Source of the DNA: Cetorhinus maximus
Taxonomy: Eukaryota
Assembly (NCBI RefSeq): GCF_964194155.1
Contig: NW_027597787.1
Span: forward strand, 1-64,000
Direction of reading: 5' to 3'
DNA: 64,000 bases
Shown here: one piece after another, positions 7,206-55,737 of the stretch
How the letters are laid out: every line of letters begins with the position of its first letter
How positions within the stretch are numbered: position 1 is the stretch's first letter
The notes under the pieces: model-generated
Seen by the model: the letters and a program-made list of their open reading frames with translations, nothing else
Databases searched by the model: none
Told to the model about the DNA's origin: nothing
Made by a program: the position numbers and the translations under genes

Positions 7206-7647
7206 TTTCCAAAGAAAATAAAACCCAGCCTATGAAATGCTTCCTCTTCCCAACTGTTTTTGATGTGAATAAGGTTGAGTGGGAGTTCGCTAATTTCTCT
7301 CCCTTAATCTTATGAATCAGATCATTCTTGACATGGGTCTGCTGCTATTGGGCACCCAGGGAGTGACCATTCTAATTCGGTGACTCTGAGCAGTTTTGTT
7401 GGTCCAGGGACTTGAGTGAAACTTGCCACTTTTAAAGCGTCATCATTCATTGTACATTAGGCCACACCTACAAACTGATTTCTCACATTTCCAGTGAAGT
7501 GGAGGAAGTTTGCTTTCATAAACCAGCAACTGTGATAAAGACAAAGCAGGATGGAGAAAGACTCATTTGGAGCACAGTGACGCAGTGGATGAATGGAGAG
7601 CTGAGGTTCACCCATGAAAGCAGCAAAGTTTTTTAAAAAAGCAACAG

Positions 7648-7720
7648 CACCCAAAGTGGGGCTTGAACCCACAAACCTGAGGTTACAGGCCTCATGCACT
7701 ACTGACTGTGCTAGCCAGAA
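7648..7720 (-). pseudogene. tRNA-Lys(CTT)-derived pseudogene with altered anticodon loop
   Basis: TTCTGGC TA GCAC AGTCAGTA GTGC A TGAGG CCTGTAA CCTCA GGTTT GTGGG TTCAAGC CCCAC TTTGGGT G; A/B boxes; T6 terminator 7 nt downstream; acceptor stem decayed. Confidence 0.75.
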
Positions 7721-8454
7721 TCTCAAGGGACTGATGCTTTCCATTCAATCATTCACAGCTTCCCTTTCTTTGTTGCACCTCCTTCCAAACACTGTGATCC
7801 ATTTTCTTCAGGATTTCTTCCTGGATTTAATATTTACCTGCTTTGTGACCTCATTTTGAGATCAGATTCTCTTCGATCTCCAACACAAATTGAGTGGCAA
7901 AGCTGTCGGACAAACAATGGAAAACAAGTCAGTCGGTAACACAAATCCCATGGTGCTCATTTACAGATTCACAACAGTCAATTTTTAAATAAAAGGAAGG
8001 AATTTTGCAGGGAAAATATTTAGAAAGTTGTTTTTATTTGTGACACACTCACTCGGGTATTTTGTAAATGCTGCTTGGAGGTTCAGTGACCGGGATATAA
8101 TCTACCTGTATTTCCCTGAGCCGGTGCTCGGTGTATTGGGAGGTTTGACCTGGGTTGGAGTATCTTGCGTCCCAGGGATGGGCACTAACCCACTGTTTGA
8201 AGCTGCAGTCACCGCCTTCTGCTGGCAGCGGGCGATTGGAGAGTGCGGGGCCGGAATATTGCTGCTTTTCTGCTTTTCCCTGTCTCACTCACTGTGGAGC
8301 TGAGGAGGAGCGAATGGGTTTGTTTGAATCCAATAACTTCACAGATTTCCAATGGGTTAGATATAGGTACAGGGTAGGTCCAATCATTTTCTCATTAAAC
8401 TTGAAATAAATTAATCTATAATCCATTTGTGTGTGGCATGGGGCAGGGAGGGGG

Positions 8455-9493: not shown

Positions 9494-10165
9494 TCACACA
9501 TGAACCCGCTGGTGTCTCAACAAGTTGGATGGTCGATTGAATCCCTTCCCACATTCGGAGCAGGTGAACGGCCTCTCCCCACTGTGAGTGCGTTGGTGTC
9601 TCTGGAGATTGAATGACTGAGTGAATCGCTTCCCACACACGGAACAGGTGAATATCCTTTCCCCAGTGTGAACTCGCTGATGTTGAATAAGGTGAGATGA
9701 TTGTCTGAATCTCTTCTCACAGTGAGAGCAACTGAATGGTCTCTTGTCAGTGTGAACAAGCTGGTGTTTAATTAGATCAGGAGAGGTTTTAAAGCAATCT
9801 CCACAGTAAAAGCATTTAAAAGGCCTCTCGTCACTGTGAACTCTCTGGTGTGACCCCAGGCTGGATGACTTAATGAATTCCTTTCCACACACAGAACAGG
9901 TGAACGGTCTCTCCCCAGTGTGACTGCGTCGATGAGTTTCCAGCTGGGATGGGAAACTGAATCCCTTCCCACAATCCCCACATTTCCACGGTTTCTCAAT
10001 GGTGTGGGTATCCTTGTGTCTCTCCAGGTTGGAAGATCTGTTGCAAACTTGTCCACACACAGAACACATGTACAGTTTCTCCCCGCTATGAATGGTGTGA
10101 TGTTTTTTCAGGCTGTGTAACTGGTTAAAGCTCTTTCCACAGTCAGTGCACTGGAAGACTCTCAC
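9494..10165 (-). CDS. C2H2 zinc-finger protein (ZNF-2), 8 fingers; start uncertain
   Basis: 223-codon open frame of tandem fingers; the usual TMEKP start is TIEKP here; upstream module has stops. Confidence 0.75.
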   Translation of the reverse strand: MRVFQCTDCGKSFNQLHSLKKHHTIHSGEKLYMCSVCGQVCNRSSNLERHKDTHTIEKPWKCGDCGKGFSFPSQLETHRRSHTGERPFTCSVCGKEFIKSSSLGSHQRVHSDERPFKCFYCGDCFKTSPDLIKHQLVHTDKRPFSCSHCEKRFRQSSHLIQHQRVHTGERIFTCSVCGKRFTQSFNLQRHQRTHSGERPFTCSECGKGFNRPSNLLRHQRVHV

Positions 10166-20570: not shown

Positions 20571-21734
20571 TCAGAATGAACATGGTTCAGTCCTGGTATG
20601 ATTAACAGCATCAACAGGAGTAGAATCCAAACCTTGCAATCGCCTGTGAACCCACTGGTGTGTTCGCAGGTGTGATGACTGAGTGAATGCCTTTCCGCAG
20701 GCATTACAGGTGAACGGCCTCTCCCCACTGTGAACTCGCTGGTGTTTCAGCAGATAGGATGAATGAGAAAATCTCTTCCCACACACAGAGCAGGTAAATG
20801 GCCTCTCCCCACTGTGAATGCTCTGGTGTGTCAGCAGGTTGGATAACTGAGTGAATCCCTTCCCACACACAGAGCAGGTGAACGGCCTCTCTCCAGTGTG
20901 TACTCGCTGGTGATTCAATAGGTTGGATGACCGAGTGAATCCCTTCCCACACACGGAGCAAGTAAACGGTCTCTCCTCAGTGTGAACCTGTTGATGTGTC
21001 AGAAGGTTAGATGAACGGGTGAATCCCTTCCTACAGTCAGAGCAGGTGAATGGTCTATCCCCTGTGTGAAGTTGCTGGTGTATCAGAAGGTTGGATGAAT
21101 TAATGAATCCCTTCCCACAGTCAGAGCAGGTGAACGGCCTCTCCCCAGTGTGAATTCGCTGGTGATTCAGTAGGGCAGTCGGACGGGTGAATCCTTTCCC
21201 ACAGTTGGTACCGGTGAATGGCCTCTCTCCAGTGTGAGTATATTGATGTGTTAGCAGTTCCTTTTTGCTTTTAAAGCTCTTGTCACAGTCAGAACAATTA
21301 AAAAATTTGTTATCAGAGTGAACAAGTTGATGTGTCAGAAGGTGGGATGACTGAATGAATCCCTTCCCACACACGGAGCAGGTGAACGGCCTCTCCCCAG
21401 TGTGAATACGTTGATGTATCAGCAGATCTTTTCTGCATTTAAAACTCTTCTCACAGTTAGAACATGTAAACGGTCTCTTATCAGTGTGAACAAGTTGGTG
21501 TGTCACAATGTGGGATGACCGAGTGAAGTCCTTCCCACACACAGGGCAGGTGAATGGCCTCTCCTCAGTGTGAACTCGCTGGTGTGTCCGAAGGTTGTAC
21601 AAATGGGTGAATCCCTTCCCACAGATAGAGCAGGTGAACGGTCTCTCCCCAGTATGACTGCGCCGATGAACTTCCAGTTGGGATGGGAAACTGAATCCCT
21701 TCCCACAGTCCATACATTTCCATGGTTTCTCCAT
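20571..21734 (-). CDS. C2H2 zinc-finger protein (ZNF-3), 13 fingers (one degenerate)
   Basis: 387-aa ORF from accATGg (MEKPWKC); the usual stop is replaced by CGA, giving a C-terminal extension. Confidence 0.88.
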   Translation of the reverse strand: MEKPWKCMDCGKGFSFPSQLEVHRRSHTGERPFTCSICGKGFTHLYNLRTHQRVHTEERPFTCPVCGKDFTRSSHIVTHQLVHTDKRPFTCSNCEKSFKCRKDLLIHQRIHTGERPFTCSVCGKGFIQSSHLLTHQLVHSDNKFFNCSDCDKSFKSKKELLTHQYTHTGERPFTGTNCGKGFTRPTALLNHQRIHTGERPFTCSDCGKGFINSSNLLIHQQLHTGDRPFTCSDCRKGFTRSSNLLTHQQVHTEERPFTCSVCGKGFTRSSNLLNHQRVHTGERPFTCSVCGKGFTQLSNLLTHQSIHSGERPFTCSVCGKRFSHSSYLLKHQRVHSGERPFTCNACGKAFTQSSHLRTHQWVHRRLQGLDSTPVDAVNHTRTEPCSF

Positions 21735-22830: not shown

Positions 22831-23554
22831 CACAAAATAGAGAACGAAAACAATTTTCTGATACCCAATTGTGAACAAATAAAAAGAAAAATCACACGCA
22901 AATCCTAGTAAATGGGTGCTTTGCCATGTTCCATTTCTCGAAGTGATTTAAACATATCTCAAGCCAGCTTAAACGTGTTAAGGGCAAGTCATGTTCAACT
23001 AACTTGCTGTAAATTATTCACAAATGCCCATTCCCCTTCCTTCTGTTGTATAATGGAAGTTCCGTGCATTGGTGTTTCTTTATCATTTGGTTCTGATCTT
23101 TATTGATTGGTCTATGGTCAAAGTTTCAATCCCATAACCACAAAGTAATCATAAAAAAAAATATTTTTCACTCACAATTACCCAGCACCCCAGCAGCTGG
23201 GATTCTGCATTGCGACTGGAGGAGCTCCTGCTCATAGATTCTGCTTCCAACAAATGTTGTTCTTATAGTGGCTGTCCCTGTGATTGCGGGCTTTTCTGGG
23301 GTGAAATTGCCCGTTGCCCCCGTGTAGTTGGAACCCTGGTTCTGAAATACTGTCCGTATGATTTTAAGGTTTCCTGGAATAATGCACCGATGGAAATCTG
23401 CAATAATCCATGGTCCCATCTGAGTTGCAGATTTTAATGTGATTGTCCAATCTAGAAAAAATATCATTTCACCCCTTTAAACCTGATTCAGCTGATCCCC
23501 TCCACACATGCTACAAAAGATTATTTTTGAGATCAGCTGTTCCTTTTCGTCTGG

Positions 23555-23657
23555 AAGAAAAACAAAAAATGCTGGAAAAATTCAGCAGGTCTGATAGCAT
23601 CTGTGGAAAGAAAGACAGAGTTAACGTTTTGAGTCCGTATGACTCTTCTTCAGAGTC
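23555..23657 (-). repeat. Penelope-type terminal repeat with hammerhead-like core
   Basis: Minus CTGAAGA-A-GAGTC-ATACG-GACTC-AAAA-CGTT-AACT. Confidence 0.65.
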
Positions 23658-23928
23658 TGTGTTATTTTGAATTATGACATTCTCCTGAACCTTTTTTTAT
23701 TTTTTTGCAAAAATATACTTTATTCATAAAATATCTTCAATCACATTCCAAACCATTTCAAAAACACCATTTCGAGGGTACAATCAGGTTCAACTTTTAC
23801 AAAATGTATCACCAGGTGCATCAGTATAAACAATATTACAGTCATTTACAGCCTTTCATTTTGAGCTGTACAGCCCGAGGGGCTTTTAAACAGTTCCCAG
23901 TCCCTCGGTGCACTGTGGCAGAAAGGTC

Positions 23929-26900
23929 TTAGATAGCGACCCTTCCCCATTGCGCCTTTGCGGCAGCTGCCCCAAGCTTCAGTGCGTCCCTCAGCACGTA
24001 ATCCTGGACTTGGATTGTGCCAGTCCGCAACACTCGGTCGGGGACAACTCTTTGTGCTGGAAGACCAACAAGTTTCGGGCAGACCAAAGCGCGTCTTTCA
24101 CCGAGTTGATGATCCTCCAGCTGCAGTTGATGTTTGTCTCGGTGTGTGTCCCTGGGAACAGCCCGTAGAGCACAGAGTCCTGTGTCACAGAACTGCTCGG
24201 GATGAACCTCGACAGCAACCACTGCATCTCTCTCCAGACCTTCTTTGCAAAGACACAATCCACAAGGAGGTGAACAACGGTCTCTTCCCCACCACAGCCA
24301 CCTCAAGGGCAACGTGCAGAGGGGGTGAGACTCCTGGCGTGTAGGAAGGATCTAACGGGAAGGGCCTTTCTCACCACCAGCCAAGCCACGTCTTGGTGCT
24401 TGTTGGAAAGTTCTAGCGATGAGGCATTCTGCCAAATGACTTTGAGTATGCTCGGGGAACCATCCCACAGGATCCACCCTCTCCTTTTCCCTCAGGACCT
24501 CTAAGACTTTACGTGCTGACCACTGCCTGATGGACTTGTGGTCAAAGGTGTTTTTCTGCATAAATTTTTCCACGAGGGACAGGTGGTACGGCACGGTCCA
24601 ACTACTTGGAGCATTCCGCGGCAGCGTGGCCAGACCCATCCTTCGCAACACCGGGGACAGGTAGAACCTCAGCACGTAGTGACACTTGGTGTTTGCGTAC
24701 TGAGGGTCTACGCACCGCTTGATGCAGCCACACACAAAGGTGGCCATCAGTATGAGGGCGATGTTGGGCACGTTTTTTCCCCCTTTATCTAGAGGCTTGT
24801 ACATCGCGTCCCTGCGGACACGATCCATTTTCGACCTCCAGATAAAGCGGAAGATGGCTCGAGTGATCGCCATCGCGCAGGAGTGTGGAATGGGCCAGAC
24901 CTGCGCCACGTACAGCAACAGCGAGAGTGCCTCACACCTGATGACCAGGTTCTTACCCGCAATGGAGAGGGAGCATCGCTCCCACATGCCCAGTTTCCTT
25001 TTCACCATAGCCACTCGCTCCTTCCAGTTTCTAACGTATGCCCTGGTCCCTCCGAACCATATCCCCAGCACCTTCAGGCCATCAGCCCTGACAGTGAAGG
25101 GGACAAAGGATCGGTCAGCCCAGTTCCCAAAGAACATGGCCTCGCTCTTCCCACGATTTACCTTGGCTCCCGAGGCCAGTTCGAACTGGTCGCAGATGTG
25201 GATCAGTCTGCGCACCGACAGCGGATCCGAGCAGAAGACGGCGACATCGTCCACGTACAGGGAGGCTTTTACCTGAGTGCCTCCACTGCCTGGGATCGTC
25301 ACTCCTCTTATGCCCGGATCCTTCCTGATGGACTCGGCAAAGGGTTCTATGCAACACATGAAAAAAACAGGCAAGAGAGGACAGCCCTGCCTGACTCCAG
25401 ATTTAATCGGAAAGCTATCTGTTTCCCACCCATTGATTGAGACTGCGCTACTGATGTTAGTGTAGAGCAGTTGGATCCAATTTCGAATTCCCTCCCCAAA
25501 CCCCATTTTGGAGAGCACATCCACCATGTAGGTGTGCGATATTCTGTCAAAGGCCTTCTCCTGATCCAAGCTGATGAGGCAGGTATCCACACCCCTGTCC
25601 TGTACATAGACAATCGTATCCCTGAGCAGCGCGAGGCTGTCAGAGATCTTCCTGCCTGGCACAGTGCAGGTCTGGTCAGGGTGAATCACCAATTCCAGAA
25701 CGGATTTGACCCGATTGGCGATGACCTTGGACAGAATCTTATAGTCCACATTCAACAGTGCAATGGGTCGCCAATTTCTAATTTCCTCCCTTCCCCCCTT
25801 GTGCTTGTAGATGAGGGTGATGATGCCTTTCCTCATTGATTCTGACATGCTGCCAGCCAGTAGCATACTCTCGTACACTTCTAGCAGGTCTGGGCCGATC
25901 AAGTCCCACAGCGCCGAATACAACTCCGCCGGCAAGCCATCGCTTCCGGGAGTTTTACTCTTCTCGAAGGACTCAAGGGCCTTAGTCAGTTCATCAGGAG
26001 TTAGCGATTTGTCCAGGCTCTCCCGCGTACTGTCGTCTAAGACCTCCGTGATAGAGGACAGGAAGGACTGGGAGGCCGTGCTGTCCGTGGGCTTCACGTC
26101 ATACAATCCGGCATAAAAGGATTTGCTGATCCTCAAAATGTCAGACTGTGATGACTTTACTGAGCCGTCTTCTTCCTTCAGGCTGCTGATCACAGAGCTC
26201 TCTCTGTGTACCTTTTGGAAGAAGAAACGTGAGCACGTCTCATAATGCTCCACGGAGCGGACTCTGGAACGGAAGATGATCTTGGAGGCCTCCGAGGCAA
26301 AGTGCGAGGCTTGCTGGCTCTTCACCTCTTGGAGTTCCTCCTTGACATCGACGCCCATCGACTGCAGTCGGAGCAGATTCTGAATGTTTTTCTGGAGTCG
26401 AGACATTTCCCTCTGTTCCTTTCTAGCTTTCTGGGTGCCTTTGAGGATGAAAAACCTCTTGATGTTTCCCTTGATCGCTTCCCACCAGTGTGTCAGGGAC
26501 TCAAAGAGGGGTTTCACGGTTCTCCAACCTTTGTAATCCCTCTTGAGCTCCTCAATGTTCTCTGGGGTCAGCAGTTGCACATTTAGCTTCCATGCCCCCC
26601 TGCCCACCCTCAGGTCCTTCACTAAGTGGCAGTCCGCCAGTAGGAGGCAGTGGTCAGAGAAAAACACCGGCTTGACGTCGGTGGATCTGACTGTGAATGC
26701 ACGGGACACAAATAGGAAGTCTATCCTGGAACGAATGGACCCGTCTGGCTGCGACCAGGTGTATCTACGCTGCGCTCCGTCTGCAGGGTTGCTGAAGACG
26801 TCGTGCAACTTGGCATCCTTAACTGTTTCCATCAGGGATCTGGACGTAGCGTCCAATCTGCTGTCGGCCCTGCTGGATCGTCCAGCCGTATCGATGATGC

Positions 26901-27333
26901 AGTTGAAGTCACCGTCCAGAATGACCAGCCTGGAGGTTGCCAGCAGCAGTGGGAGCTGCTGAAAAACCTCCAGCCGCTCGGCCCCTTGTGACGGGCCATA
27001 CACGTTAATTAACCGGAGTGGAGCATTCTTGTATATTACGTCTGCTACGAGGAGGCGCCCGCCCACCACCTCCTTAACCTCAGAGACGGTGAAGTTGCCT
27101 CCCCGCAGCAGAATACCCATGCCGGAGCAACGAGAGTTGTTTCCGCCCGACCAGATCGATGGCCCATGGGACCACCATCGTGACCATTGCCTGTAGGAGC
27201 TGAGGTGTGGTATCGCACACTCCTGCAGAAACAAAATGTCAGCTTTGACCTTGGCAAGGTAGTCCAAGGTCGCAACACGTCGCGTAGTCGATTTAATGCT
27301 ACGCACATTTATGGATACAATCTTTAAACCCAT
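23929..27333 (-). CDS. Tx1 unit B ORF2 (APE endonuclease, RT, C-terminal CCHC), frameshifted near 24447
   Basis: SINVRS, FLQE, GDFN, SRID, SDH (EN); KTPGSDG, WRPIALLN, LDQEKAFD, GVRQGCP, YVDD (RT); C-terminal part continues in another frame. Confidence 0.92.
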
Positions 27334-27343
27334 TTTAAAGCAT

Positions 27344-28882
27344 TTATTCTCTTACCAAACCTGTTGTCTCTGAGAGTCCCAGAGCTTTAGTCTGCTCCTT
27401 CATACCCGTAGTGAACTCAAATTGCTTCACTTTGGATGGGCTGAGGAAATTTTCCTGAACCTCCCCATTGGCGGTGTTCTGCTCGGGTGGCATCTGGGGG
27501 ACTGAGCAGAGAGTGGGGTTTGAAATGACCTTTGTTGGAGAAGCTTCTCCAATCCTCTCACCCTCTGGGACGTTCCTGCTCCCGGCTTCCCGGAGCTGGG
27601 GTGCGCTGAGCGTCTCACTGCTCCCAGATTCCTGGGGCTGTGGTGCGCTGGCCTCTTCGGGTTGTAGGCAAAGTTGGGGTGCGCTGGTCTCCTCATTGTC
27701 TCCAATGTTCTGAAGCTCGGGTGCCTCGTCCTCCAACTCCCGAGAGCTTTGCCACTTCTTCTGTCGGTGCCGCCTTGGCCCTTCTTCATCCGAAGAGCTG
27801 CTGCCCTTGTCATCCATTTCAAATGGGAGATGCCTCTTGCCACTTGTCTGGGAAATGGCTTGGTTTCTTCTTAGCCCCTTCTTCCTTTTGGCTCTCTTCA
27901 CCGTCTGCCACTCCCCCTGCTGCTTTGCCACTGCTGCCTCCTCCCCCTCCATTGATTCGCTGTCCTGAGGACTGGGAGGTTCAGGGGGCAGTGCTGTTGA
28001 TTGGCTGTCAGTTGCCTCAATCTTTTCCTCCACCTTATCTCTCTCTGTGTCCTCCTTTGTCCCATTGTTCTTCCTGGGGGCCTTGGTGGTTGGAGTGACA
28101 CGAAGCATTTCTTCTGCTTCCCTCTCATTGGCTTTGGCTGCCTGTACATAAGTACGGCAGCGTTTGGGGCAGGTCCTGTAGAGGTGACCTGCCTCGACAC
28201 ACAGGTTGCAGCACTTAGCCTGTTTGCAGTCTTTTGTCTGGTGCCCTTCCTGTTTGCAGTTCTTGCAGAGGACGGCACTGCAGTTGGCTGCCACATGACC
28301 AGACTTGCCGCATGAGCGACAAAGTTTGGGTTGCCCAGCGTAGACGAGGTAACCACAGCTTCCCCCGATAGCGAATCTGGAAGGAGGGTTGAAGGTGGCT
28401 CCCTTACCGTCGGTTTTGAGCGTGACCTTAATCTGGCGTTTGCATATCCAGATCCCCAAATCGTCTCTAACCGCGGTGCAGCTCCCCACCTTATCGAAGT
28501 ACCTGGTGAGGAAGGTGAGCACGTCGGCGACAGGGACGAAGGGGTCATAAAGATGCACATTCACCACCCTGTCCCGTTGCGACAGCAGAGCAAAGAGCGG
28601 CTCCGCTGTCAGGATCTTCATCTCCGGCAGGTCTCTCTTCTTGAACACCTTCAGGAGCTTGACGCAGTCTGCCACTCGCTTGAACGTCACATCAAAATAT
28701 CCAGCGCTGGGGAAGTCCTGCAGGCAGTAGATTTCCGCAGCTTCGAAACCACACACCTTTAACAGGATCCTCCTGGCGAAGACTGCCCGATCCACAGGTG
28801 CTCCTCCTTCTTCGCTGCCCTTCACCATGACTTGGATGGTGTTAGGTACCCCATGGTATGGGGCTTGATTGGTTATAGCCAT
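27344..28882 (-). CDS. Tx1 unit B ORF1, intact 512 aa, three CCHC zinc knuckles
   Basis: CRSCGKSGHVAANC, CKNCKQEGHQTKDC, CNLCVEAGHLYRTC; 10-nt spacer to ORF2. Confidence 0.9.
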   Translation of the reverse strand: MAITNQAPYHGVPNTIQVMVKGSEEGGAPVDRAVFARRILLKVCGFEAAEIYCLQDFPSAGYFDVTFKRVADCVKLLKVFKKRDLPEMKILTAEPLFALLSQRDRVVNVHLYDPFVPVADVLTFLTRYFDKVGSCTAVRDDLGIWICKRQIKVTLKTDGKGATFNPPSRFAIGGSCGYLVYAGQPKLCRSCGKSGHVAANCSAVLCKNCKQEGHQTKDCKQAKCCNLCVEAGHLYRTCPKRCRTYVQAAKANEREAEEMLRVTPTTKAPRKNNGTKEDTERDKVEEKIEATDSQSTALPPEPPSPQDSESMEGEEAAVAKQQGEWQTVKRAKRKKGLRRNQAISQTSGKRHLPFEMDDKGSSSSDEEGPRRHRQKKWQSSRELEDEAPELQNIGDNEETSAPQLCLQPEEASAPQPQESGSSETLSAPQLREAGSRNVPEGERIGEASPTKVISNPTLCSVPQMPPEQNTANGEVQENFLSPSKVKQFEFTTGMKEQTKALGLSETTGLVRE

Positions 28883-28892
28883 TGCTTGACGA

Positions 28893-28944
28893 CCTTTCCC
28901 TGGCAGAAACCGTGATCAGGGTCTCTCCCCTGCCAGGTAAGTAT
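28893..28944 (-). ncRNA. U1 snRNA-derived 5' head of Tx1 unit B (partial, remodelled)
   Basis: ATACTTACCTGGCAGGGGAGAGACCCTGATCACGGTTTCTGCCAGGGAAAGG; first 21 nt identical to vertebrate U1 5' end. Confidence 0.88.
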
Positions 28945-28960
28945 CTTTATAGTCTTTGTC

Positions 28961-29865
28961 TTTTTTTTTGCAAAAATATACTTTATTCATAAAATATCTT
29001 CAACCACATTCCAAACCATTTCAAAAACACCATTACCAGGGTACAATCAGGTTCAACTTTTACGAAATGTATCACCAGGTGCATCAGTACAAACAATGTT
29101 TCAATCATTTACAGCCTTTCATTTTGAGCTGTACAGCTCGAGGGGGTTTTAAACAGTTCCCAGCCCCTCGGTGCACTGTGGCAGAAAGGTCTTAGACAGT
29201 GACCCTTCCCCATTGTGCCTTTGCGGCAGCTGCCCCAAGCTTTAGTGCGTCCCTCAGCACGTAGTCCTGGATTTTGGATTGTGCCAGTCCGCAACACTCG
29301 GTCGGGGACAACTCTTTGTGCTGGAAGACCAACAAGTTTCGGGCAGACCAAAGCACGTCTTTCACCGAGTTGATGATCCTCCAGCTGCAGTTGATGTTTG
29401 TCTCGGTGTGCGTCCCTGGGAACAGCCTGTAGAGCACAGAGTCCTGTGTCACAGAACTGCTCGGGGTGAACCTCGACAGAAACCACTGCATCTCTCTCCA
29501 GACCTTCTTTGCAAAGGCACAATCCACCAAGAGGTGAACAACAGTCTCCTCCCCACTACAGCCACCTCGAGGGCAACGTGCAGAGGGGGTGAGACTCCTG
29601 GCGTGTAGGAAGGATCTGACGGGGAGGGCCTTTTTCACCACTAGCCAAGATACGTCTTGGTGCTTGTTGGAAAGTTCTAGCGATGAGGCATTCTGCCAAA
29701 TGACTTTGACAGTCTGCTCGGGGAACCATCTCCTGACGTGTAGGAAGGATCTGACGGGGAGGGCCTTTCTCACCACCAGCCAAGCCACGTCTTGGTGCTT
29801 GTTGGAAATTTCTGGCGATGATGCATTCTGCCAAATGACTTTGACAGTCTGCTCGGGGAACCATC
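28961..29865 (-). mobile_element. 5'-truncated Tx1 3' fragment with a 135-bp duplicated start
   Basis: ORF 29192-29884 has WFPEQTVKVIWQNASS twice; period 135 bp; own 3'UTR and A-tail. Confidence 0.88.
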
Positions 29866-30102
29866 TTTGTCTTTTTTTTTGCAAAAATATACTTTATTCA
29901 TAAAATATCTTCAATCACATTCCAAACCATTTCAAAAACAACATTACAAGGGTACAATCCAGGTTAAACTTTTACAAAATGTATCACCAGGTGCATCAGT
30001 ACAAACAATATTACAATCATTTCCAGCCTTTCATTTTGAGCTGTACAGCCCGAGGGGCTCTAAACAGTTCCCAGTCTCTCGGTGCGCTGTGGCAGAAAGG
30101 TC

Positions 30103-33100
30103 TTAGACAGCGACCCTTCCCCATTGCGCCTTTGCGGCAGCTGCCCCAAGCTTTAGTGCGTCCCTCAGCACATAGTCCTGGACTTTGGTTTGTGCCAGTC
30201 CGCAACAATCGGTCGGGGACAACTCTTTGTGCTGGAAGACCAACAAGTTTCGGGCAGACCAAAGCGCGTCTTTCACCGAGTTGATGATCCTCCAGCTGCA
30301 GTTGATGTTTGTCTCGGTGTGTGTCCCTGGGAACAGCCCGTAGAGCACAGAGTCCTGTGTCACAGAACTGCTCGGGATGAACCTCGACAGCAACCACTGC
30401 ATCTCTCTCCAGACTTTCTTTGCAAAGGCACAATCCACAAGGAGGTGAACAACGGTCTCTTCCCCACCACAGCCACCTCGAGGGCAATGTGCAGAGGGGG
30501 TGAGACTCCTGGCGTGTAGGAAGGATCTGACGGGGAGGGCCTTTCTCACCACCAGCCAAGTGGTGCTTGGTGCTTGTTGGAAAGTTCTGGCGATGAAGCA
30601 TTCTGCCAAATGACTTTGACAGTCTGCTCGGGGAACCATCCCACAGGGTCCACCCTCTCCTTTTCCCTCAGGGCCTCTAAGACTTTACGTGCTGACCACT
30701 GCCTGATGGACTTGTGGTCAAAGGTGTTTTTCTGCATAAATTTTTCCACGAGGGACAGGTGGTACAGCACGGTCCAACTACTTGGAGCATTCCGCGGCAG
30801 CGTGGCCAGACCCATCCTTCGCAACACCGGGGACAGGTAGAACCTCAGCACGTAGTGACACTTGGTGTTTGCGTACTGAGGGTCTACGCACCGCTTGATG
30901 CAGCCACACACAAAGGTGGCCATCAGTATGAGGGCGATGTTGGGCACGTTTTTTCCCCCTTTATCTAGAGGCTTGTACATCGCGTCCCTGCGGACACGAT
31001 CCATTTTCGACCTCCAGATAAAGCGGAAGATGGCTCGAGTGATCGCCATCGCGCAGGAGTGTGGAATGGGCCAGACCTGCGCCACGTACAGCAACAGCGA
31101 GAGTGCCTCACACCTGATGACCAGGTTCTTACCCGCAATGGAGAGGGAGCATCGCTCCCACATGCCCAGTTTCCTTTTCACCATAGCCACTCGCTCCTTC
31201 CAGTTTCTAACGTATGCCCTGGTCCCTCCGAACCATATCCCCAGCACCTTCAGGCCATCAGCCCTGACAGTGAAGGGGACAAAGGATCGGTCAGCCCAGT
31301 TCCCAAAGAACATGGCCTCGCTCTTCCCACGATTTACCTTGGCTCCCGAGGCCAGTTCGAACTGGTCGCAGATGTGGATCAGTCTGCGCACCGACAGCGG
31401 ATCCGAGCAGAAGACGGCGACATCGTCCACGTACAGGGAGGCTTTTACCTGAGTGCCTCCACTGCCTGGGATCGTCACTCCTCTTATGCCCGGATCCTTC
31501 CTGATGGACTCGGCAAAGGGTTCTATGCAACACATGAAAAAAACAGGCAAGAGAGGACAGCCCTGCCTGACTCCAGATTTAATCGGAAAGCTATCTGTTT
31601 CCCACCCATTGATTGAGACTGCGCTACTGATGTTAGTGTAGAGCAGTTGGATCCAATTTCGAATTCCCTCCCCAAACCCCATTTTGGAGAGCACATCCAC
31701 CATGTAGGTGTGCGATATTCTGTCAAAGGCCTTCTCCTGATCCAAGCTGATGAGGCAGGTATCCACACCCCTGTCCTGTACATAGACAATCGTATCCCTG
31801 AGCAGCGCGAGGCTGTCAGAGATCTTCCTGCCTGGCACAGTGCAGGTCTGGTCAGGGTGAATCACCAATTCCAGAACGGATTTGACCCGATTGGCGATGA
31901 CCTTGGACAGAATCTTATAGTCCACATTCAACAGTGCAATGGGTCGCCAATTTCTAATTTCCTCCCTTCCCCCCTTGTGCTTGTAGATGAGGGTGATGAT
32001 GCCTTTCCTCATTGATTCTGACATGCTGCCAGCCAGTAGCATACTCTCGTACACTTCTAGCAGGTCTGGGCCGATCAAGTCCCACAGCGCCGAATACAAC
32101 TCCGCCGGCAAGCCATCGCTTCCGGGAGTTTTACTCTTCTCGAAGGACTCAAGGGCCTTAGTCAGTTCATCAGGAGTTAGCGATTTGTCCAGGCTCTCCC
32201 GCGTACTGTCGTCTAAGACCTCCGTGATAGAGGACAGGAAGGACTGGGAGGCCGTGCTGTCCGTGGGCTTCACGTCATACAATCCGGCATAAAAGGATTT
32301 GCTGATCCTCAAAATGTCAGACTGTGATGACTTTACTGAGCCGTCTTCTTCCTTCAGGCTGCTGATCACAGAGCTCTCTCTGTGTACCTTTTGGAAGAAG
32401 AAACGTGAGCACGTCTCATAATGCTCCACGGAGCGGACTCTGGAACGGAAGATGATCTTGGAGGCCTCCGAGGCAAAGTGCGAGGCTTGCTGGCTCTTCA
32501 CCTCTTGGAGTTCCTCCTTGACATCGACGCCCATCGACTGCAGTCGGAGCAGATTCTGAATGTTTTTCTGGAGTCGAGACATTTCCCTCTGTTCCTTTCT
32601 AGCTTTCTGGGTGCCTTTGAGGATGAAAAACCTCTTGATGTTTCCCTTGATCGCTTCCCACCAGTGTGTCAGGGACTCAAAGAGGGGTTTCACGGTTCTC
32701 CAACCTTTGTAATCCCTCTTGAGCTCCTCAATGTTCTCTGGGGTCAGCAGTTGCACATTTAGCTTCCATGCCCCCCTGCCCACCCTCAGGTCCTTCACTA
32801 AGTGGCAGTCCGCCAGTAGGAGGCAGTGGTCAGAGAAAAACACCGGCTTGACGTCGGTGGATCTGACTGTGAATGCACGGGACACAAATAGGAAGTCTAT
32901 CCTGGAACGAATGGACCCGTCTGGCTGCGACCAGGTGTATCTACGCTGCGCTCCGTCTGCAGGGTTGCTGAAGACGTCGTGCAACTTGGCATCCTTAACT
33001 GTTTCCATCAGGGATCTGGACGTAGCGTCCAATCTGCTGTCGGCCCTGCTGGATCGTCCAGCCGCATCGATGATGCAGTTGAAGTCACCGTCCAGAATGA

Positions 33101-33509
33101 CCAGCCTGGAGGTTGCCAGCAGCAGTGGGAGCTGCTGAAAAACCTCCAGCCGCTCGGCCCCTTGTGACGGGCCATACACGTTAATTAACCGGAGTGGAGC
33201 ATTCTTGTATATTACGTCTGCTACGAGGAGGCGCCCGCCCACCACCTCCTTAACCTCAGAGACGGTGAAGTTGCCTCCCCGCAGCAGAATACCCAGGCCG
33301 GAGGGACGAGAGTCGTTTCCGCCCGACCAGATCGATGGCCCATGGGACCACCATCGTGACCATTGCCCGTAGGAGCTGAGGTGCGGTATCGCACATTGCT
33401 GCAGAAACAACAGGTCAGCTTTGACCTTGGCAAGGTAGTCCAAGGTCGCAACACATCGCGTAGTAGATTTGATGCTACGCACATTTATGGATACAATCTT
33501 TAAACCCAT
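30103..33509 (-). CDS. Tx1 unit A ORF2, frameshifted near 30560
   Basis: Same EN/RT motifs as unit B; CCHC domain (CPRGGCGGEETVVHLLVDC) in ORF 30103-30639. Confidence 0.92.
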
Positions 33510-33519
33510 TTTAAAGCAT

Positions 33520-35026
33520 TTATTCTCCTACCAAACCCGTTGTCTCTGAGAGTCCCAGACCTTTAGTCTGCTCCTTCATACCCGTAGTGAGCTCAAATTG
33601 CTTCACTTTGGATGGGCTGAGGTAGTTCTCCTTGGCGGTGTTCTGCTCAGGTGCAATCAGGGGGTTCGCGTTGAGAGCAGGTTTTGAGATGACCTTTGGT
33701 GGAGAAGCTTCTCCAAAACTCACCCCCTCTGGGGCATTGCTGTTCCCGGCTTCCCGGAGCTGGGGTGCGATGATTGCCTCACTGCTCCCAGGTTCCTGGG
33801 GCTGTGGTGTACTGGCCTCCTCAGGTTGCAGGCAAAGTTGGGGTGCTCTGGTCTCCTTGTTGTCTCCAATGTTCTGGAGCTCGGGTGTCTCGTCCTCCAA
33901 CGCCCTGGAGCTTTGCCGCTTCTTCTGTCGGTGCCGCCCTGGCACTTCTTCATCCGAAGAGCTGCTGCCTTTGTCATCCATGTCGGATGGGAGACGCCTC
34001 TTGCCACTTGTCTGGGAAGTGGCTTTGCTTCTTCTTCGCTCCTTCTTCCTTTTGGCTCTCCTCACCGTCTGCCACTCCCCCTGCTGCTTTTCCACTGCTG
34101 CTTCCTCCTCCATTGATTCGCTGTCCTGAGGAGTGGGAGGTTCAGGGAGTGGTGCTGTTGTTTGGCTATCTGTTGCCTCAATCTCTTCCTCCACCTTGTC
34201 TCTCTCTGTGTCCTCCTTTGTCCCGTTGAGCTCCCTGGGGGCCTTGGTGGTTGGAGTGACATGAAGCATTTCTTCTGCTTCCCCCTCGTTGGCTTTGGCT
34301 GCCTGTGCATAAGTACGGCCTGTAGAGGTGACCTGCCTCGCCACACAGGTTGCAGCACTCAGCCTGTTTGCAGTCTTTTCTCTGGTGCCCTTCCTGTTTC
34401 CAGATCTTGCAGAGGGAGGCGCTGCAGTTGGCCGCCACATGACCAGCCTTGCCGCATGAGCGACAATGCTTGGGTTGCCCAGCGTAGACCAGGTAGCCAC
34501 AGTTTCCCCCGATAGCGAATCTGGAAGGAGGGTGGAAAATGGCTCCCTTACCGTCGGTCTTTAGCGTGACCTTAAACTGGCGTTTGCCTGTCCAGATCCC
34601 CAAGTCGTCTCGAATCTCGGTGCCGCTCCCCACCTTATCGAAGTACCTGGTGAGGAAGGTGACCACGTCAGCGACAGGGACGAAGGGGTTGTACAGATGC
34701 ACCATCACCACACAGTCCCGTTGCAACTGCAGAGCAAAGAGCGGCTCCGCCGTCAGGATCTTCATCTCCGGCAGGTCTCTCTTCTCCTCGAACACCCTCA
34801 GGAGCTGGACGCAGTCTGCCACCCGCTTGAACGTCATGTCGAAAAAACCAGCGCTGGGGAAGTCCTGCAGGGTGAAGATCTCCGGAGCTTCAAAACTGCA
34901 CGCCTTCAACAGGATCCTCCTGGCGAAGAAGGCCCGATCCATAGGTGATCCTCCTTCGCTGTCCTTCACCGTGACTCAGACGGTGTTAGATAACCCATGG
35001 TATGGGTTTTGATTGGTTATAGCCTT
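33520..35026 (-). pseudogene. Tx1 unit A ORF1, disrupted
   Basis: Start ATG changed to AAG, early TGA (~34976), deletion/frameshift after the third knuckle (~34318); clearly diverged from unit B ORF1. Confidence 0.85.
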
Positions 35027-35036
35027 TGCTTCCCGA

Positions 35037-35087
35037 CCTTGCCTTGGCAGAACCATGCTCATGGTCTCTCCCCTGCCAGGTAAGTAT
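35037..35087 (-). ncRNA. U1 snRNA-derived 5' head of Tx1 unit A
   Basis: ATACTTACCTGGCAGGGGAGAGACCATGAGCATGGTTCTGCCAAGGCAAGG. Confidence 0.88.
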
Positions 35088-35114
35088 CAGGACATTCTCC
35101 TGAACCTGTCCTAA

Positions 35115-35546
35115 ATTCTTTCGAGTTATCAACAGTCACAGATTGCAACTCTTTCGAGTACAATCACAGTTCTTGGTTTCCGGGAGTGGGACATGAACCC
35201 ACAACCCTCTGATTCAAAGGCGAGGGTGCTATGGACTGAGCCACAGCTGACACCTCCTCAATTCTTTCGAGTTATCAACAGTCACAGATTGCAACTCTTT
35301 CAAGCACAATCACAGTTCTTGGTTTCCGGGAGTGGGACATGAACCCACAACCCTCTGATTCAAAGGCGAGGGTGCTATGAACTGAGCCACAGCTGACACC
35401 TCAAAAATTCTTTCGAGTTATCAACAGTCACAGATTGCAACTCTTTCGAGTACAATCACAGTTCTTGGTTTCCGGGAGTGGGACATGAACCCACAACCCT
35501 CTGATTCAAAGGCGAGGGTGTTATGGACTGAGCCACAGCTGACACC
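35115..35546 (-). mobile_element. Head-to-tail trimer of a 140-bp tRNA-derived SINE
   Basis: Units 35115-35254, 35261-35400, 35407-35546; A box TGGCTCAGT, B box GGTTCATGTCC; flanking direct repeat aacctgtcctaa (35103-35114, 35548-35559). Confidence 0.88.
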
Positions 35547-36240: not shown

Positions 36241-37087
36241 GGAGAGAATGTTGTGCATTTCTATCCTGGACTGACGGGGATGGGTTTTGGAAACTCCTTT
36301 TATAGGGAATTGGAAGGGGAGGATTTACACACAGCCATTCAAAGCAAAGATCACATTAAGATCTGACTCAAGTCACTCGATTCATCAGGACCTGGATATT
36401 ATCGGTCTTTGAGTTTAAGCATTGAGTTCCAGGTCATTAACACTCAATGTGTGAAATTTCTTCCTCACATTCCCCCTGTAGATCTTACCCTAAATCTTAA
36501 ATCTGTGTCTGTGATACTTTTATGATTAGCTAATACCTTATGTATTTTTCATTCACAGGATGTGGGCTTTGCTGGATGGGCCAGCATTTATTGCCCATCC
36601 CTAGTTTCCTTTGAGAAGGTGGTGGTGAGCTGGCCCTTCTTGGTGGTGGAGGTTCAGGGTTTTGAGTTTCTGTCAAAATTCTGGTTGAGTTGTAATCCCT
36701 CTTTTTCAACCGTTCCCTCTCCCACCCCGACCCTTCTCTCTCTTCCTGTCTTCTCCCATCTAGGCCTGTGCCTTGTGTAGGCCCAGACTGGGTGGCAGAT
36801 TCCCTTCCCTGAAGGACATGTGAACCAGTTGGGTTTTTATGACAATCCAGCAGTTTTCATGGTCACTTTTCCCTGGTGCCGGCCCCACAAATTACCAGAT
36901 TCATTCAGCTCAATTTCACAACCTGTTTTTGTGGGTTCTCTCTCACTCCCTTTTCTCTGTTTTAAATCAATTTCACAGGGTATTAGAAGGGGAGGATTTG
37001 CAGTTGGGAAACTGAAACCAAACATCACATCAGGATCTGACAGAGTTGCCCAGTTTATCATCACCCAGATATCATCGGAAGTTGAAC

Positions 37088-38209
37088 ATGGAAGGAAAAA
37101 GCACCGTTCACAGTGGGGAGAAACCGTACACGTGTTCTGTGTGTGGACGAGGCTTCAACCGATCATCTAATCTGTTGAAACATAAATGCAGTCACAACAG
37201 GGAGAAACTGTGGAAATGTGGGGACTGTGGGAAGGGATTTAATTACCCATCAGAGCTGGAAAATCATCAACGAATTCACACTGGGGAGAGGCCATTCACC
37301 TGCCCTGAGTGTAGGAAGAGATTTACTTGTTCGTCCAGCCTGCTGAAACATCGGCGAGTTCACACTGGGGAGAGGCCGTTCACCTGCTCCGAGTGTGGGA
37401 AGGGATTTGCTCGGTCATCCACCCTGCTGACACACCAGCGAGTTCACACTGACGAGAGACCTTTCAAATGCCCAGACTGCGGGAAGTGCTTTAAAAGTCC
37501 CCGGGAACTGACTGCCCATCAACGTGTTCACACTGATGAGAGGCCATTCAGGTGCTCGCACTGTGGGACTGGGTTCAAGACATTATTTCACCTCACTGTT
37601 CACCAGCGAATTCACACTGGGGAGAGCCCATTCACCTGCTCCAAGTGTGGGAAGGGATTTGCTAACGCATCCACCCTGCTGAATCACCAGAGTGTTCACA
37701 CTGACGAGAGACCTTTCAAATGTCCAGACTGTGGGAAGTGCTTTAAAAGTTCCGGGGACCTGATGATCCATCAACGTGTTCACACCGATGAGAGACCGTT
37801 CAGGTGCTCTCACTGCGGGACTGGGTTCAGACAATCATCTCAACTCATTGTACACCAGCGAATTCACAATGGGGAGAGACCATTCACCTGCTCAGAGTGT
37901 GGGATGGGATTCACTCGCTTATCCATCCTGTTGACACACCAGCGCACGCACACTGGGGAGAGGCCATTCACCTGCTCTGAGTGTGGGAGGGGATTCACAA
38001 CCACATCCTCCCTGCTGAGACACCGGCGAGTTCACACTGGGGAGAGGCCATTCAGCTGCCCCGAGTGTGGGAGGGGATTCACAACCACATCCTCCCTGCT
38101 GAGACACCGGCAAGTTCACACTGGGGAGAGGCCATTCACTTGCCCCGAGTGTGGGAGGGGATTCATAACCTCATCCAAACTGCTGAAACATCAGCGAGTT
38201 CACAAGTGA
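37088..38209 (+). CDS. C2H2 zinc-finger protein (ZNF-4), 13 fingers; close paralog of ZNF-1
   Basis: ORF 37046-38209; ATG at 37088 (MEGKS); acceptor ttcacag at ~36978; AATAAA downstream. Confidence 0.9.
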
Positions 38210-40724: not shown

Positions 40725-41483
40725 ATGGAGAAACCATGCAAATGTGGGGAATGTGGGAAGGGATTCCGGTCCCCATCTGCACTGGAATCTCATCGCCGCA
40801 TTCACACTGGGGAGAGGCCGTTCACCTGCTCTGATTGTGGAAAGGGATTCACTCAGTTATCCCACCTGCAGATACACCAGCGACTTCACACCGGGGAGAG
40901 GCCGTTCACCTGCTCTGATTGTGGGAAGGGATTCACTAACTCTTCCAATCTGCGGACACACCAGCGAGTTCACACGGGGGAGAGACCGTTCACCTGCTCC
41001 ATATGTGGGAAAGGTTTCAGTGATTCATCCAGCTTGCTGATACACCAGCGAGTTCATACTGGGGACAAATCATTCAACTGCTCTGTATGTGGGAAGCAAT
41101 TCAGTCGATTATGCAACCTTCTGCGACACCAGCGAGCTCACACTGGGGAGAGGCCGTTCACCTGCTCTGAGTGTGGGAAGGGATTTGCTGATCCATCCAT
41201 CTTGCAGAAGCACCGGCGAGTTCACACTGGGGAGAGGCCATTCAGCTGCTCCATGTGTGGGAAGGGTTTCACTCAGTTAACCAACATGCTGACACACCAG
41301 CGAGTTCACACTGGGGAGCGGCCTTTCATCTGCTGTGAGTGTGGGAAGGGATTCAGTGATTCATCCACCCTACTGCGACACCAGGGTGTTCACACTGGGG
41401 AGAGGCCGTTCACCTGCTCCATGTGTGGGAAACGATTCACTCGGTCATCTCACCTGCTGAGACACCAGCGAGTTCACCAGTAA
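40725..41483 (+). CDS. C2H2 zinc-finger protein (ZNF-5), 9 fingers
   Basis: 252-aa ORF from accATGg; decayed fingers upstream at 40480-40720. Confidence 0.82.
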
Positions 41484-50405: not shown

Positions 50406-51248
50406 TTACTTGTGAACTCTCCGGTGTCTCAGCAGACTGGATAACTGACTGAAACCCTTCCCACACATAGAGCAGGTGAATGGCCTCTCACCAGTGTGAA
50501 TTCGCTGGTGTCTCAGCAGGGTGGACGAATCTCTGAATCCCTTCCCACATTCAGAGCAGATGGACGGTCTCTCCCTGGTATGAACTCGCTGTTGCATCAC
50601 CAGGTTGCATGACTGAATGAATCCTTTCCCGCATCCAGAGCAGGTGAATGGCCTCTTCCCATTGTGAACATGTTGGTGTGTCTGCAGGTGGGATAATTGA
50701 GTGAATCCTTTCCCACACTCGGAGCAGATGAAAGGCCTCTCCTCGGTGTGAACTCGCTGGTGCGTCAGCAGGTTGGATGACTGAGGGAATCCCTTCCCAC
50801 ATGTAGAGCAGATGAAGGGCTTCTCCCCGGTGTGAACCCGCTGGTGTGTCAGGAGGGCAGATGAATCGCTGAATCTCTTCCCACACTCAGAGCAGGTGAA
50901 TGGCCTCTCCCTGGTGTGAACTCGCTGGTGCATCAGCAGGTTGGATGACTGAGTAAATCCCTTCCCACACTCAGAGCAGATAAATGGCCTCTCCCCAGTG
51001 TGAACTCGCTTGTGTGTCAGCAGGTGAGATGAATTACTGAATCCCTTCCCACATTCAGAGCAGATGAATGGCCTCTCCCCGGAGTGAACTCGCTGGTGTT
51101 TCAGCAGGGTGGATGACTGAGTGAATGCTTTCCCACACTCAAAGCAGGTGAAAGGCCTCTCCCCAGTGTGAATGCGTTGATGAGTTTCCAGCGCAGATGG
51201 GGTGCAGAATCCCTTCCCACAGTCACCACATTTGTACGGTTTCTCCAT
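50406..51248 (-). CDS. C2H2 zinc-finger protein (ZNF-6), 10 fingers (one H>Q)
   Basis: 280-aa ORF from accATGg (MEKPYKC). Confidence 0.87.
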
Positions 51249-54844: not shown

Positions 54845-55519
54845 ATGGAGAAACCATGGAAATGTAGGGATTGTGGGAAGGGATTCCGATGCCCGTCTGC
54901 ACTGGAAATTCATCAACGCAGTCACACTGGGGAGAGGCCATTCACCTGCTCTGAGTGTGGGAAGGCATTCAGTGGTTCATGGCAGCTGCACGCACACCAG
55001 CGAGTTCATGCAGTGGAGAGGCCATTCACCTGCTCTCAGTGTGGCAAGGGATTCAGTGATTCATCAACCCTGCTGAGACACCAGCGAGTTCACACTGGAG
55101 AGAGGCCGTTCACCTGCTCTGAGTGTGGGAAGGGATTAACCCAGTTATCCAACCTGCTAACACACCAGGAAATTCACACCGGGGAGAGGCCATTCACCTG
55201 CTCTCATTGTGGGAAAGGATTCACTCGGTTATTCAACTTGCAGACACATCAGCGAGTCCACACCGGGGAGAGGCCGTTCACCTGCTCTGTGTGTGGGAAG
55301 GGTTTCACCCAGTCATCCAACCTGCTGCTACACCAGCAACTTCACACTGGGGAGAGGTCATTCCCCTGCTCTCAGTGTGGGAAGGGATTCACTCGATTAT
55401 CCAGCTTACAGAGGCACCAGCGAGTTCACACCGGGGAGAGGCCATTCATGTGCTCTGTGTGTGGGAAGGGATTCACTCAGTCATCCCACCTGCAGACACA
55501 CCAGCGTGTTCACAAGTGA
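54845..55519 (+). CDS. C2H2 zinc-finger protein (ZNF-7), 8 fingers
   Basis: accATGg at 54845 (MEKPWKC); acceptor ttttacag at ~54484; decayed fingers 54600-54840. Confidence 0.87.
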
Positions 55520-55597: not shown

Positions 55598-55737
55598 GGT
55601 GTCAGCTGTGGCTCAGTTCATAGCACCCTCGCCTTTGAATCAGAGGGTTGTGGGTTCATGTCCCACTCCTGGAAACCAAGAACTGTGATTGTACTTGAAA
55701 GAGTTGCAATCTGTGACTGTTGATAACTCGAAAGAGT
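55598..55737 (+). mobile_element. 140-bp tRNA-derived SINE monomer in the ZNF-7 3'UTR
   Basis: Near-identical to trimer units; 17-bp TSD ttcatcctgacagttgg at 55580-55596 and 55738-55754. Confidence 0.92.

Follow-up and report, generated by a model that had tools for sequence, protein, structure and literature searches.

Structure of the composite block

A 64,000-nucleotide stretch of the Cetorhinus maximus contig NW_027597787.1 (hereafter the window, to which all positions refer) contains an 11.4 kb composite block built from a Tx1-like long interspersed nuclear element (LINE). The block is read on the minus strand. It consists of two full-length elements, units A and B, and two shorter pieces, F and C, all inside one perfect 17-bp target site duplication (TSD), and this anatomy is real. 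The left copy of the TSD (AGGTTCAGGAGAATGTC, 35091-35107) and the right copy (23692-23676) are identical at 17 of 17 positions. These are the only two copies in the window, and none lies between the units. The order of parts and the outer TSD given in an initial annotation of the same DNA were borne out at these coordinates. That annotation did not mention the U1-derived heads, the nearly identical middle of ORF2, the shared first base of F and C, or a neighbouring SINE-like trimer, all described below. Outside the block, no further copies of the element were found in the 64-kb window.

Unit A, full length with an A-tail, spans 35087-29872 and is separated from the left TSD by CTG (35088-35090). 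A G likewise precedes the head of unit B, and the G of CTG may be a copied cap. Unit A starts with a head derived from U1 snRNA (35030-35087; Rfam RF00003), which covers the 5' arm plus stem-loop I, whose loop is shortened. The following region of the first open reading frame (ORF1, 33520-35030) encodes RNA-binding domains of the ZCCHC3 type, and a deletion of 17 bp near 34320 interrupts its frame. ORF2 (30103-33509) encodes an APE endonuclease, a reverse transcriptase (RT) and a zf-RVT domain, with a frameshift near 30566. Within ORF2 lies a site at 30625-30640 (GATGGTTCCCC...), termed S, which resembles the outer target and provides the start base of both F and C. The 3' untranslated region (UTR; 29881-30102) contains AATAAA, and GACAAAG follows directly after the unit, from 29871.

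Piece F (29731-29865) is a tailless 135-bp portion of ORF2 beginning at S. Piece C (28970-29730, or to 28961 with its tail) runs from S through the 3' UTR with an open frame. The zf-RVT domain is located in the 3' pieces. C is separated from B by GACAAAGACTATAAAG (28960-28945), of which CTATAAAG (28945-28952) is a unique spacer preceding B and a candidate for source flank or untemplated bases.

Unit B, also full length, spans 28944-23693. It has a U1-derived head (28886-28944; RF00003), an ORF1 of 523 open codons (27344-28915) with ZCCHC3 RNA-binding domains and a CCHC knuckle, and an ORF2 (23929-27333) whose 3' end is broken by a 2-bp deletion near 24446, a stop and a 1-bp deletion near 24012. 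The 3' UTR and an A7-T-A6 tail occupy 23693-23928. Both units are inactive: A has frameshifts in ORF1 and ORF2, and B has two frameshifts and one stop near the end of ORF2. The block has the appearance of a genuine composite fossil of a U1-headed Tx1-like family.

Family identity and U1-derived heads

A separate ORF1 bearing CCHC knuckles and RNA-binding domains is a trait of Tx1 elements. In the present element, Pfam places PF23057, PF23058 and PF00098 in a separate ORF1, while ORF2 contains PF03372 (APE endonuclease) followed by PF00078 (RT). A poly(A) tail and a TSD are both present, as in the Tx1 clade. The best PDB match of ORF2 is human L1 ORF2p (E 7e-87), and its nearest named protein is from the whale shark, with 68% identity over 20% of ORF2. 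Named Tx1, Keno or Tx1-Mar references were absent from the ORF2 homology matches; the clade name is assigned here on architecture.

The U1 heads were detected when Rfam was applied to short stretches with truncated matches allowed, whereas a 15-kb Rfam scan had missed them. The head of A matches RF00003 at model positions 1-64 (E 1e-4), below the gathering score because it is 3'-truncated. The head of B matches at model positions 1-34 (E 1.3e-5) and 1-65 (E 4.4e-4), also below the gathering score. Both begin at U1 position 1 and have the same shortened loop. An insertion into a U1 gene was ruled out, since Rfam found no U1 remainder after any tail; the U1 piece is therefore a head and not the target. 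The U1 5' arm shows 26 identical bases (P about 0.06), which does not support special conservation, and folds of the two head hairpins were not significant (z -1.8 and -1.3). On the plus strand, the heads (35076-35087 and 28933-28944) match the consensus 5' splice donor and could affect plus-strand transcripts across the block.

Family copies were examined in public reads, with 4 of 24 runs compared over 23350-29060; runs X15-X23, each sharing 0.16 or less, were left aside. The best run shares 0.64 of the words of the window, so that it may come from another individual or species. The one-base gap in the head of A, opposite position 28911 in B, occurs in 30 of 47 reads of organism C with 25 different starts, indicating that the head region is family-wide in that organism; its reads appear to extend to the first base of the head. 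Raw read depth in organism C is about 1,530 near the 3' end of the element and 57 near the 5' end. Assuming a genome of 3-5.5 Gb, this corresponds to roughly 2,400-4,500 copies of the 3' end and 90-165 of the 5' end. The family is large and 5'-truncated. U1-headed elements of the Tx1-Mar type prefer Mariner-N4_AMi or a target of the AGGTTC type. AGGTTC begins the one outer TSD here; flanks across the family agree at 0.33 with no clear consensus. A scan of the family 3' end against metagenomes returned 0 matches.

The reads also contain rearranged forms. A joint from 23909 to 27329 (runs X1, X5 and X24; three organisms) represents a derivative without ORF2, in which ORF1 is fused, with 13 additional letters, to the 3' UTR, and which is a candidate non-autonomous family. 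A second recurrent internal deletion joins 24342 to 25487 in runs X1, X2 and X24. One contig in X2 joins 28943 to 24761, that is, ORF2 sequence to the U1 head, and may reflect nesting at another locus.

Internal repeat and common start of F and C

When flanking direct repeats were sought around eight candidate units of the block, exact 17-bp repeats were found for two of them, the whole block and F plus C. The other six share at most 4-8 bases; for B, the shared bases are limited to 4-8 and are A-rich. The repeat around F and C (AAAAAAAAAGACAAAGA) lies at 29880-29864 and 28969-28953 and reads A9GACAAAGA, so that this motif follows both A and C with an equal count of A's. The initial annotation had seen no internal TSDs and held that a single insertion would be contradicted by an internal junction with a TSD of its own. 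Formally, the repeat around F and C is such a junction, although it may instead be a re-copied 3' end.

GACAAAG, which the initial annotation had suggested surveying in other copies as a linker, is not the usual end of the family. In three runs, 109, 129 and 122 contigs extend beyond the nine A's, into flanks agreeing at 0.32-0.33. Since most family tails enter unrelated flanks, the tails of A and C are unlikely to come from unrelated templates; what they share is specific to the locus, whether as a TSD or through re-copying of an end. A minority subfamily ending in A9GACAAAGA may exist, given that the loose-end evidence covers 24 of 4,692 rows.

F and C share their first base, S, which corresponds to 30640 in A and 24464 in B. 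At S, GGTTC stands in register with the core of the outer TSD. The chance of this is 0.0009 per exact position, with five such sites in A, and S is the sole GGTTCCC of unit A. In the accessible text of PMC4494074, the usual TSD of SINEU-3, which is thought to be mobilised by Tx1-Mar, is AGGTTCCCATCAGCAT and contains GGTTCCC. RNA structure as a reason for a stop at S was unsupported in three folds (z -0.66, 1.74 and 0.24).

Divergence among the units

The ORF1s of A and B differ by about 10% (160 substitutions over 506 codons), with a ratio of nonsynonymous to synonymous rates of 0.58. The substitutions include 0 stops, compared to 5.8 expected if neutral (P 0.002). We read these ORF1 differences as the product of two source lineages and of decay.

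At the 3' end, A and B are about 4% apart. Pairwise distances among the 3' ends of the three copies A, C and B are 4.1-5.2%, in agreement with the differing 3' UTRs of the initial annotation. With F included, the 3' parts are 4.1-5.9% apart in a star-like pattern, and F and C differ at 8 of 135 bases. Private changes number 16 in A, 21 in C and 12 in B, and these similar counts fit a joint origin. Among the 26 A-C differences, 10 are synonymous (P 0.23), which fits neutral decay. Being star-like and compatible with neutral decay, the 3'-end differences are no proof of separate templates, and this divergence does not show whether C derives from the source of A. Decay and source differences could not be told apart by the synonymous and nonsynonymous counts of the 3' parts (3/4 for A, 4/4 for B and 6/8 for C). 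Protein homologs did not serve to polarise the three copies, the full-length ones being too distant (34-47%).

In contrast to the diverged ORF1s and 3' ends, the middle of ORF2 is nearly identical. Positions 33295-30767 of A and 27119-24591 of B differ once in about 2,530 bases (P 3e-21 at 2% divergence). A stretch of 2,298 bp is free of differences, while the surrounding parts are 4-10% apart. This pattern indicates that the middles were homogenised later, by conversion or by assembly. Variant evidence came from 40 of 1,308 rows, of which 34 were analysed after leaving out four flank rows and two rows in C. Of the letters of B that are uncommon in organism C reads, A shares 7 of 7 inside the stretch but 3 of 27 outside it. 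All seven are nonsynonymous; five are rare in all four runs and two are common in organism A. Across 95 near-invariant columns in 43 homologs, three departures lie inside the shared stretch and a fourth past the frameshift. These rare letters indicate that the copies were made alike after decay and that the sequence is not a family consensus. A and B are also identical over a further 206 bp (P 0.004), which is consistent with gene conversion in patches. The same identity could come from an assembler, but conversion would be the preferred explanation.

Origin of the block

The initial annotation had proposed an RT jumping successively between three or four RNA templates. A jump between two full-length RNAs stands as the best account of the A-B pair, because a single 17-bp TSD encloses the pair, nothing comparable flanks B by itself, the outer TSD is not repeated between the units and the ORF1s look to be of two lineages; the three or four templates do not stand as written. 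Tentatively, and at something short of an even chance, we favour one insertion, in which B was joined to A by a template jump and the 3' end of A was re-copied twice. This would have been one event of target-primed reverse transcription using RNAs of two source elements of the U1-headed Tx1-like family. The endonuclease would have nicked the outer target, and RT would have copied B through to its 5' end before jumping end to end onto an RNA of source A ending in an A-tail and a few flank bases (GACAAAGACTAT; A9GACAAAGACTAT). After copying this RNA as far as S, the 3' end of the cDNA would have been re-primed twice at more 3' sequence of source A, yielding F and then the whole 3' end of A, and RT would finally have continued to the 5' end of A. 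About 2% decay per copy and then gene conversion over 2.5 kb of ORF2 would have followed. Re-copying of the 3' end would leave A9GACAAAGA present twice, and since S resembles the target of the element, the re-priming would most likely have been triggered by the element's own endonuclease nicking there. A single insertion of this kind explains why the two A runs are equally long and why F and C begin at one base, the 17-bp length of the internal repeat being taken as chance.

Several observations weigh against this single insertion. A second insertion better explains why the internal repeat is exactly as long as the outer TSD. S was recognised as target-like post hoc, the bases retained at the F/C joint are one off register, and family reads show neither an end pile-up nor a depth step at S. 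A and C, at 5.2%, are no closer to each other than A and C are to B (4.1% and 4.8%), and one site groups C with B but F with A. The synonymous excess in ORF1 over the neutral null is marginal (P 0.04). No junction-spanning piece was present among the 24 listed of about 157,000 read pieces.

The strongest rival assumes two events: the A-B pair was inserted first, and F plus C, a 5'-truncated copy whose 5' end is doubled, entered the poly(A) of A later, with A9GACAAAGA as its TSD. We consider this rather unlikely, yet a serious competitor. Besides the exact 17-bp repeat, a length inside the 12-18 bp range that PMC10830420 gives for the stagger of L1 ORF2p, it is supported by a GA microhomology at the 5' joint, by the similar distances of C to A and to B, and by a neighbouring trimer of short interspersed nuclear element (SINE)-like units, described below, that also struck this site. 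However, C would have to add zero A's to the duplicated A9, the A-tail is unlike the outer GGTTC-type target, another hit in a 9-base tail is required, and the start of both F and C at the target-like S needs a separate reason. An origin at the DNA level seems improbable. Here, a nick at S in an existing A-B pair would have been followed by two slip-backs during replication or repair, or an ectopic or circular donor (B5'-ORF2-A3'-F-C) would have recombined into a single TSD-flanked element, doubling the middle of ORF2. The same sequence is predicted, including the repeated linker and 1-2 bases of microhomology, and the donor version also accounts for the identical ORF2 middles, but it needs a concatemer at another locus. 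A later duplication should moreover leave less divergence between A and C than between either of them and B, which is not so.

An assembly artefact, through a false loop or consensus polishing, is a quite improbable source of the block or even just of its identical ORF2 middles. The difference-free 2,298 bp amid more diverged flanks, the lack of spanning pieces and the limited word sharing of the best run would fit, but family-rare letters are retained in the shared stretch, the junctions all consist of unique sequence, and the two copies of the outer TSD match perfectly. Little credence can be given to three or four unrelated RNAs joined end to end, with GACAAAG as a family 3' end or linker. 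The 3' ends are 4-6% apart, F and C differ over their common 135 bp and the SINE-like trimer looks multi-template; however, with most tails entering unrelated flanks a double A9GACAAAGA is unlikely, as is the halting of two RNAs at S. Fully serial nesting, with B entering the 3' junction of A and leaving a very short TSD (AAAG, or ATAAAG followed by slippage of the A-run), has the faintest prospects of all. It is permitted by the sequence, and tandem insertions of Tx1-Mar and SINEU are described as common in the accessible text of PMC4494074, but the clear TSDs in the region measure 12-17 bp, and R1 and SINEU-3 tandems retain a target TSD between units that is absent here. The initial annotation's alternative of serial insertion at the element's own 5' end is unsupported on the same point, as no copy of the outer TSD stands between the units.

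Taken together, the block is a rare copying accident explicable through known mechanisms. If the single insertion is true, it would be an unusually long in vivo template-jump product of an RT, joining two full-length lineages, and self-nicking at an internal target-like site would be a testable cause for repeated truncation at one base. A more general claim, that a Tx1 endonuclease cuts the copy being made of its own element at the target-like site in ORF2, that RT re-primes repeatedly to yield an 11.4-kb concatemer of two lineages, and that end-to-end jumping is routine in the retrotransposons of this genome, as the neighbouring SINE-like trimer hints, we regard as doubtful and unlikely. Whatever the mechanism, U1-headed Tx1 LINEs are extended from crocodilians to a shark, with thousands of copies. 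The locus also calls for caution: a single outer TSD is no proof of a single event, and later conversion wipes evidence. It holds one dead copy set, and a host function is not indicated.

Neighbourhood of the block

Next to the block, on the minus strand, three head-to-tail SINE-like units (35115-35546) lie within their own 12-bp TSD (35559-35548 and 35114-35103), which extends over the initial five bases of the left Tx1 TSD. The units are 97-99% alike, and the joints between them differ. A dispersed copy on the plus strand (55598-55737) has a TSD of about 17 bp (TTCATCCTGACAGTTGG), lacks poly(A) and had no credible match in Rfam. It has two letters in common with the middle unit of the trimer, and GACAG(G)TT is present in both SINE TSDs. 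The trimer is possibly a multi-template insertion. It lends weak support to end-to-end joining in this genome, and equally to a site that attracts repeated insertions.

The block lies inside a cluster of arrays with an 84-bp period (378-1304, 9500-10000, 20645-21657, 37271-38204, 40801-41477, 50411-51172 and 54922-55514). The one array scanned (37016-38209) is a C2H2 zinc-finger array. A high-copy short repeat at 23555-23657, about 20 bp outside the right TSD, bears a possible resemblance to shark HE1/HER1 tails. ARAGORN predicted a tRNA-Thr(TGT) gene or pseudogene at 7647-7721 on the minus strand.

Comparison with known systems

The endonuclease of R2 is of a different type from that of the present element. 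In vivo template jumps of R2 to U12 and tRNA, as described in the accessible part of PMC3414825, are similar in that RT leaves the 5' end of a full-length element RNA and continues end to end on another RNA, and an snRNA head acquired in this manner may found a subfamily. They differ in their rDNA target and small-RNA acceptors. Neither a U1-headed Tx1 element in sharks nor two full-length LINEs in one TSD were found in the literature covered, which was partial (few subscription papers, no Repbase and no supplements of PMC4494074).

For L1, template jumping by ORF2p in vitro is reported in the portion of PMC10830420 consulted. Template switching or RNA ligation is the cause given in the relevant section of PMC11702581 for nine L1 insertions made from two transcripts, some of them joined in the same orientation. 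They resemble the block in combining same-orientation pieces of two RNAs per insertion; that section describes no pair of full-length elements, whereas the block comprises 11.4 kb with two full units and a re-copied 3' end. R1 arrays likewise consist of LINE units arranged head to tail at one target. According to the available text of PMC2718515, however, a 14-bp target TSD lies between their units, reflecting serial insertion, while none is present between A and B.

The closest parallels come from crocodilians, for which the accessible text of Kojima (2015, PMC4494074) describes U1-derived heads in three Tx1 families, Tx1-2_Crp, Tx1-2B_Crp and Tx1-4_AMi. The crocodilian Tx1 and SINEU elements share with the present block a U1 head at the 5' end, poly(A), a TSD beginning with AGGTTC, 5' additions ascribed to template jumps and the occurrence of tandem copies. 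In the tandems shown in that text the target TSD is sandwiched between the units, which distinguishes them from the block of C. maximus.

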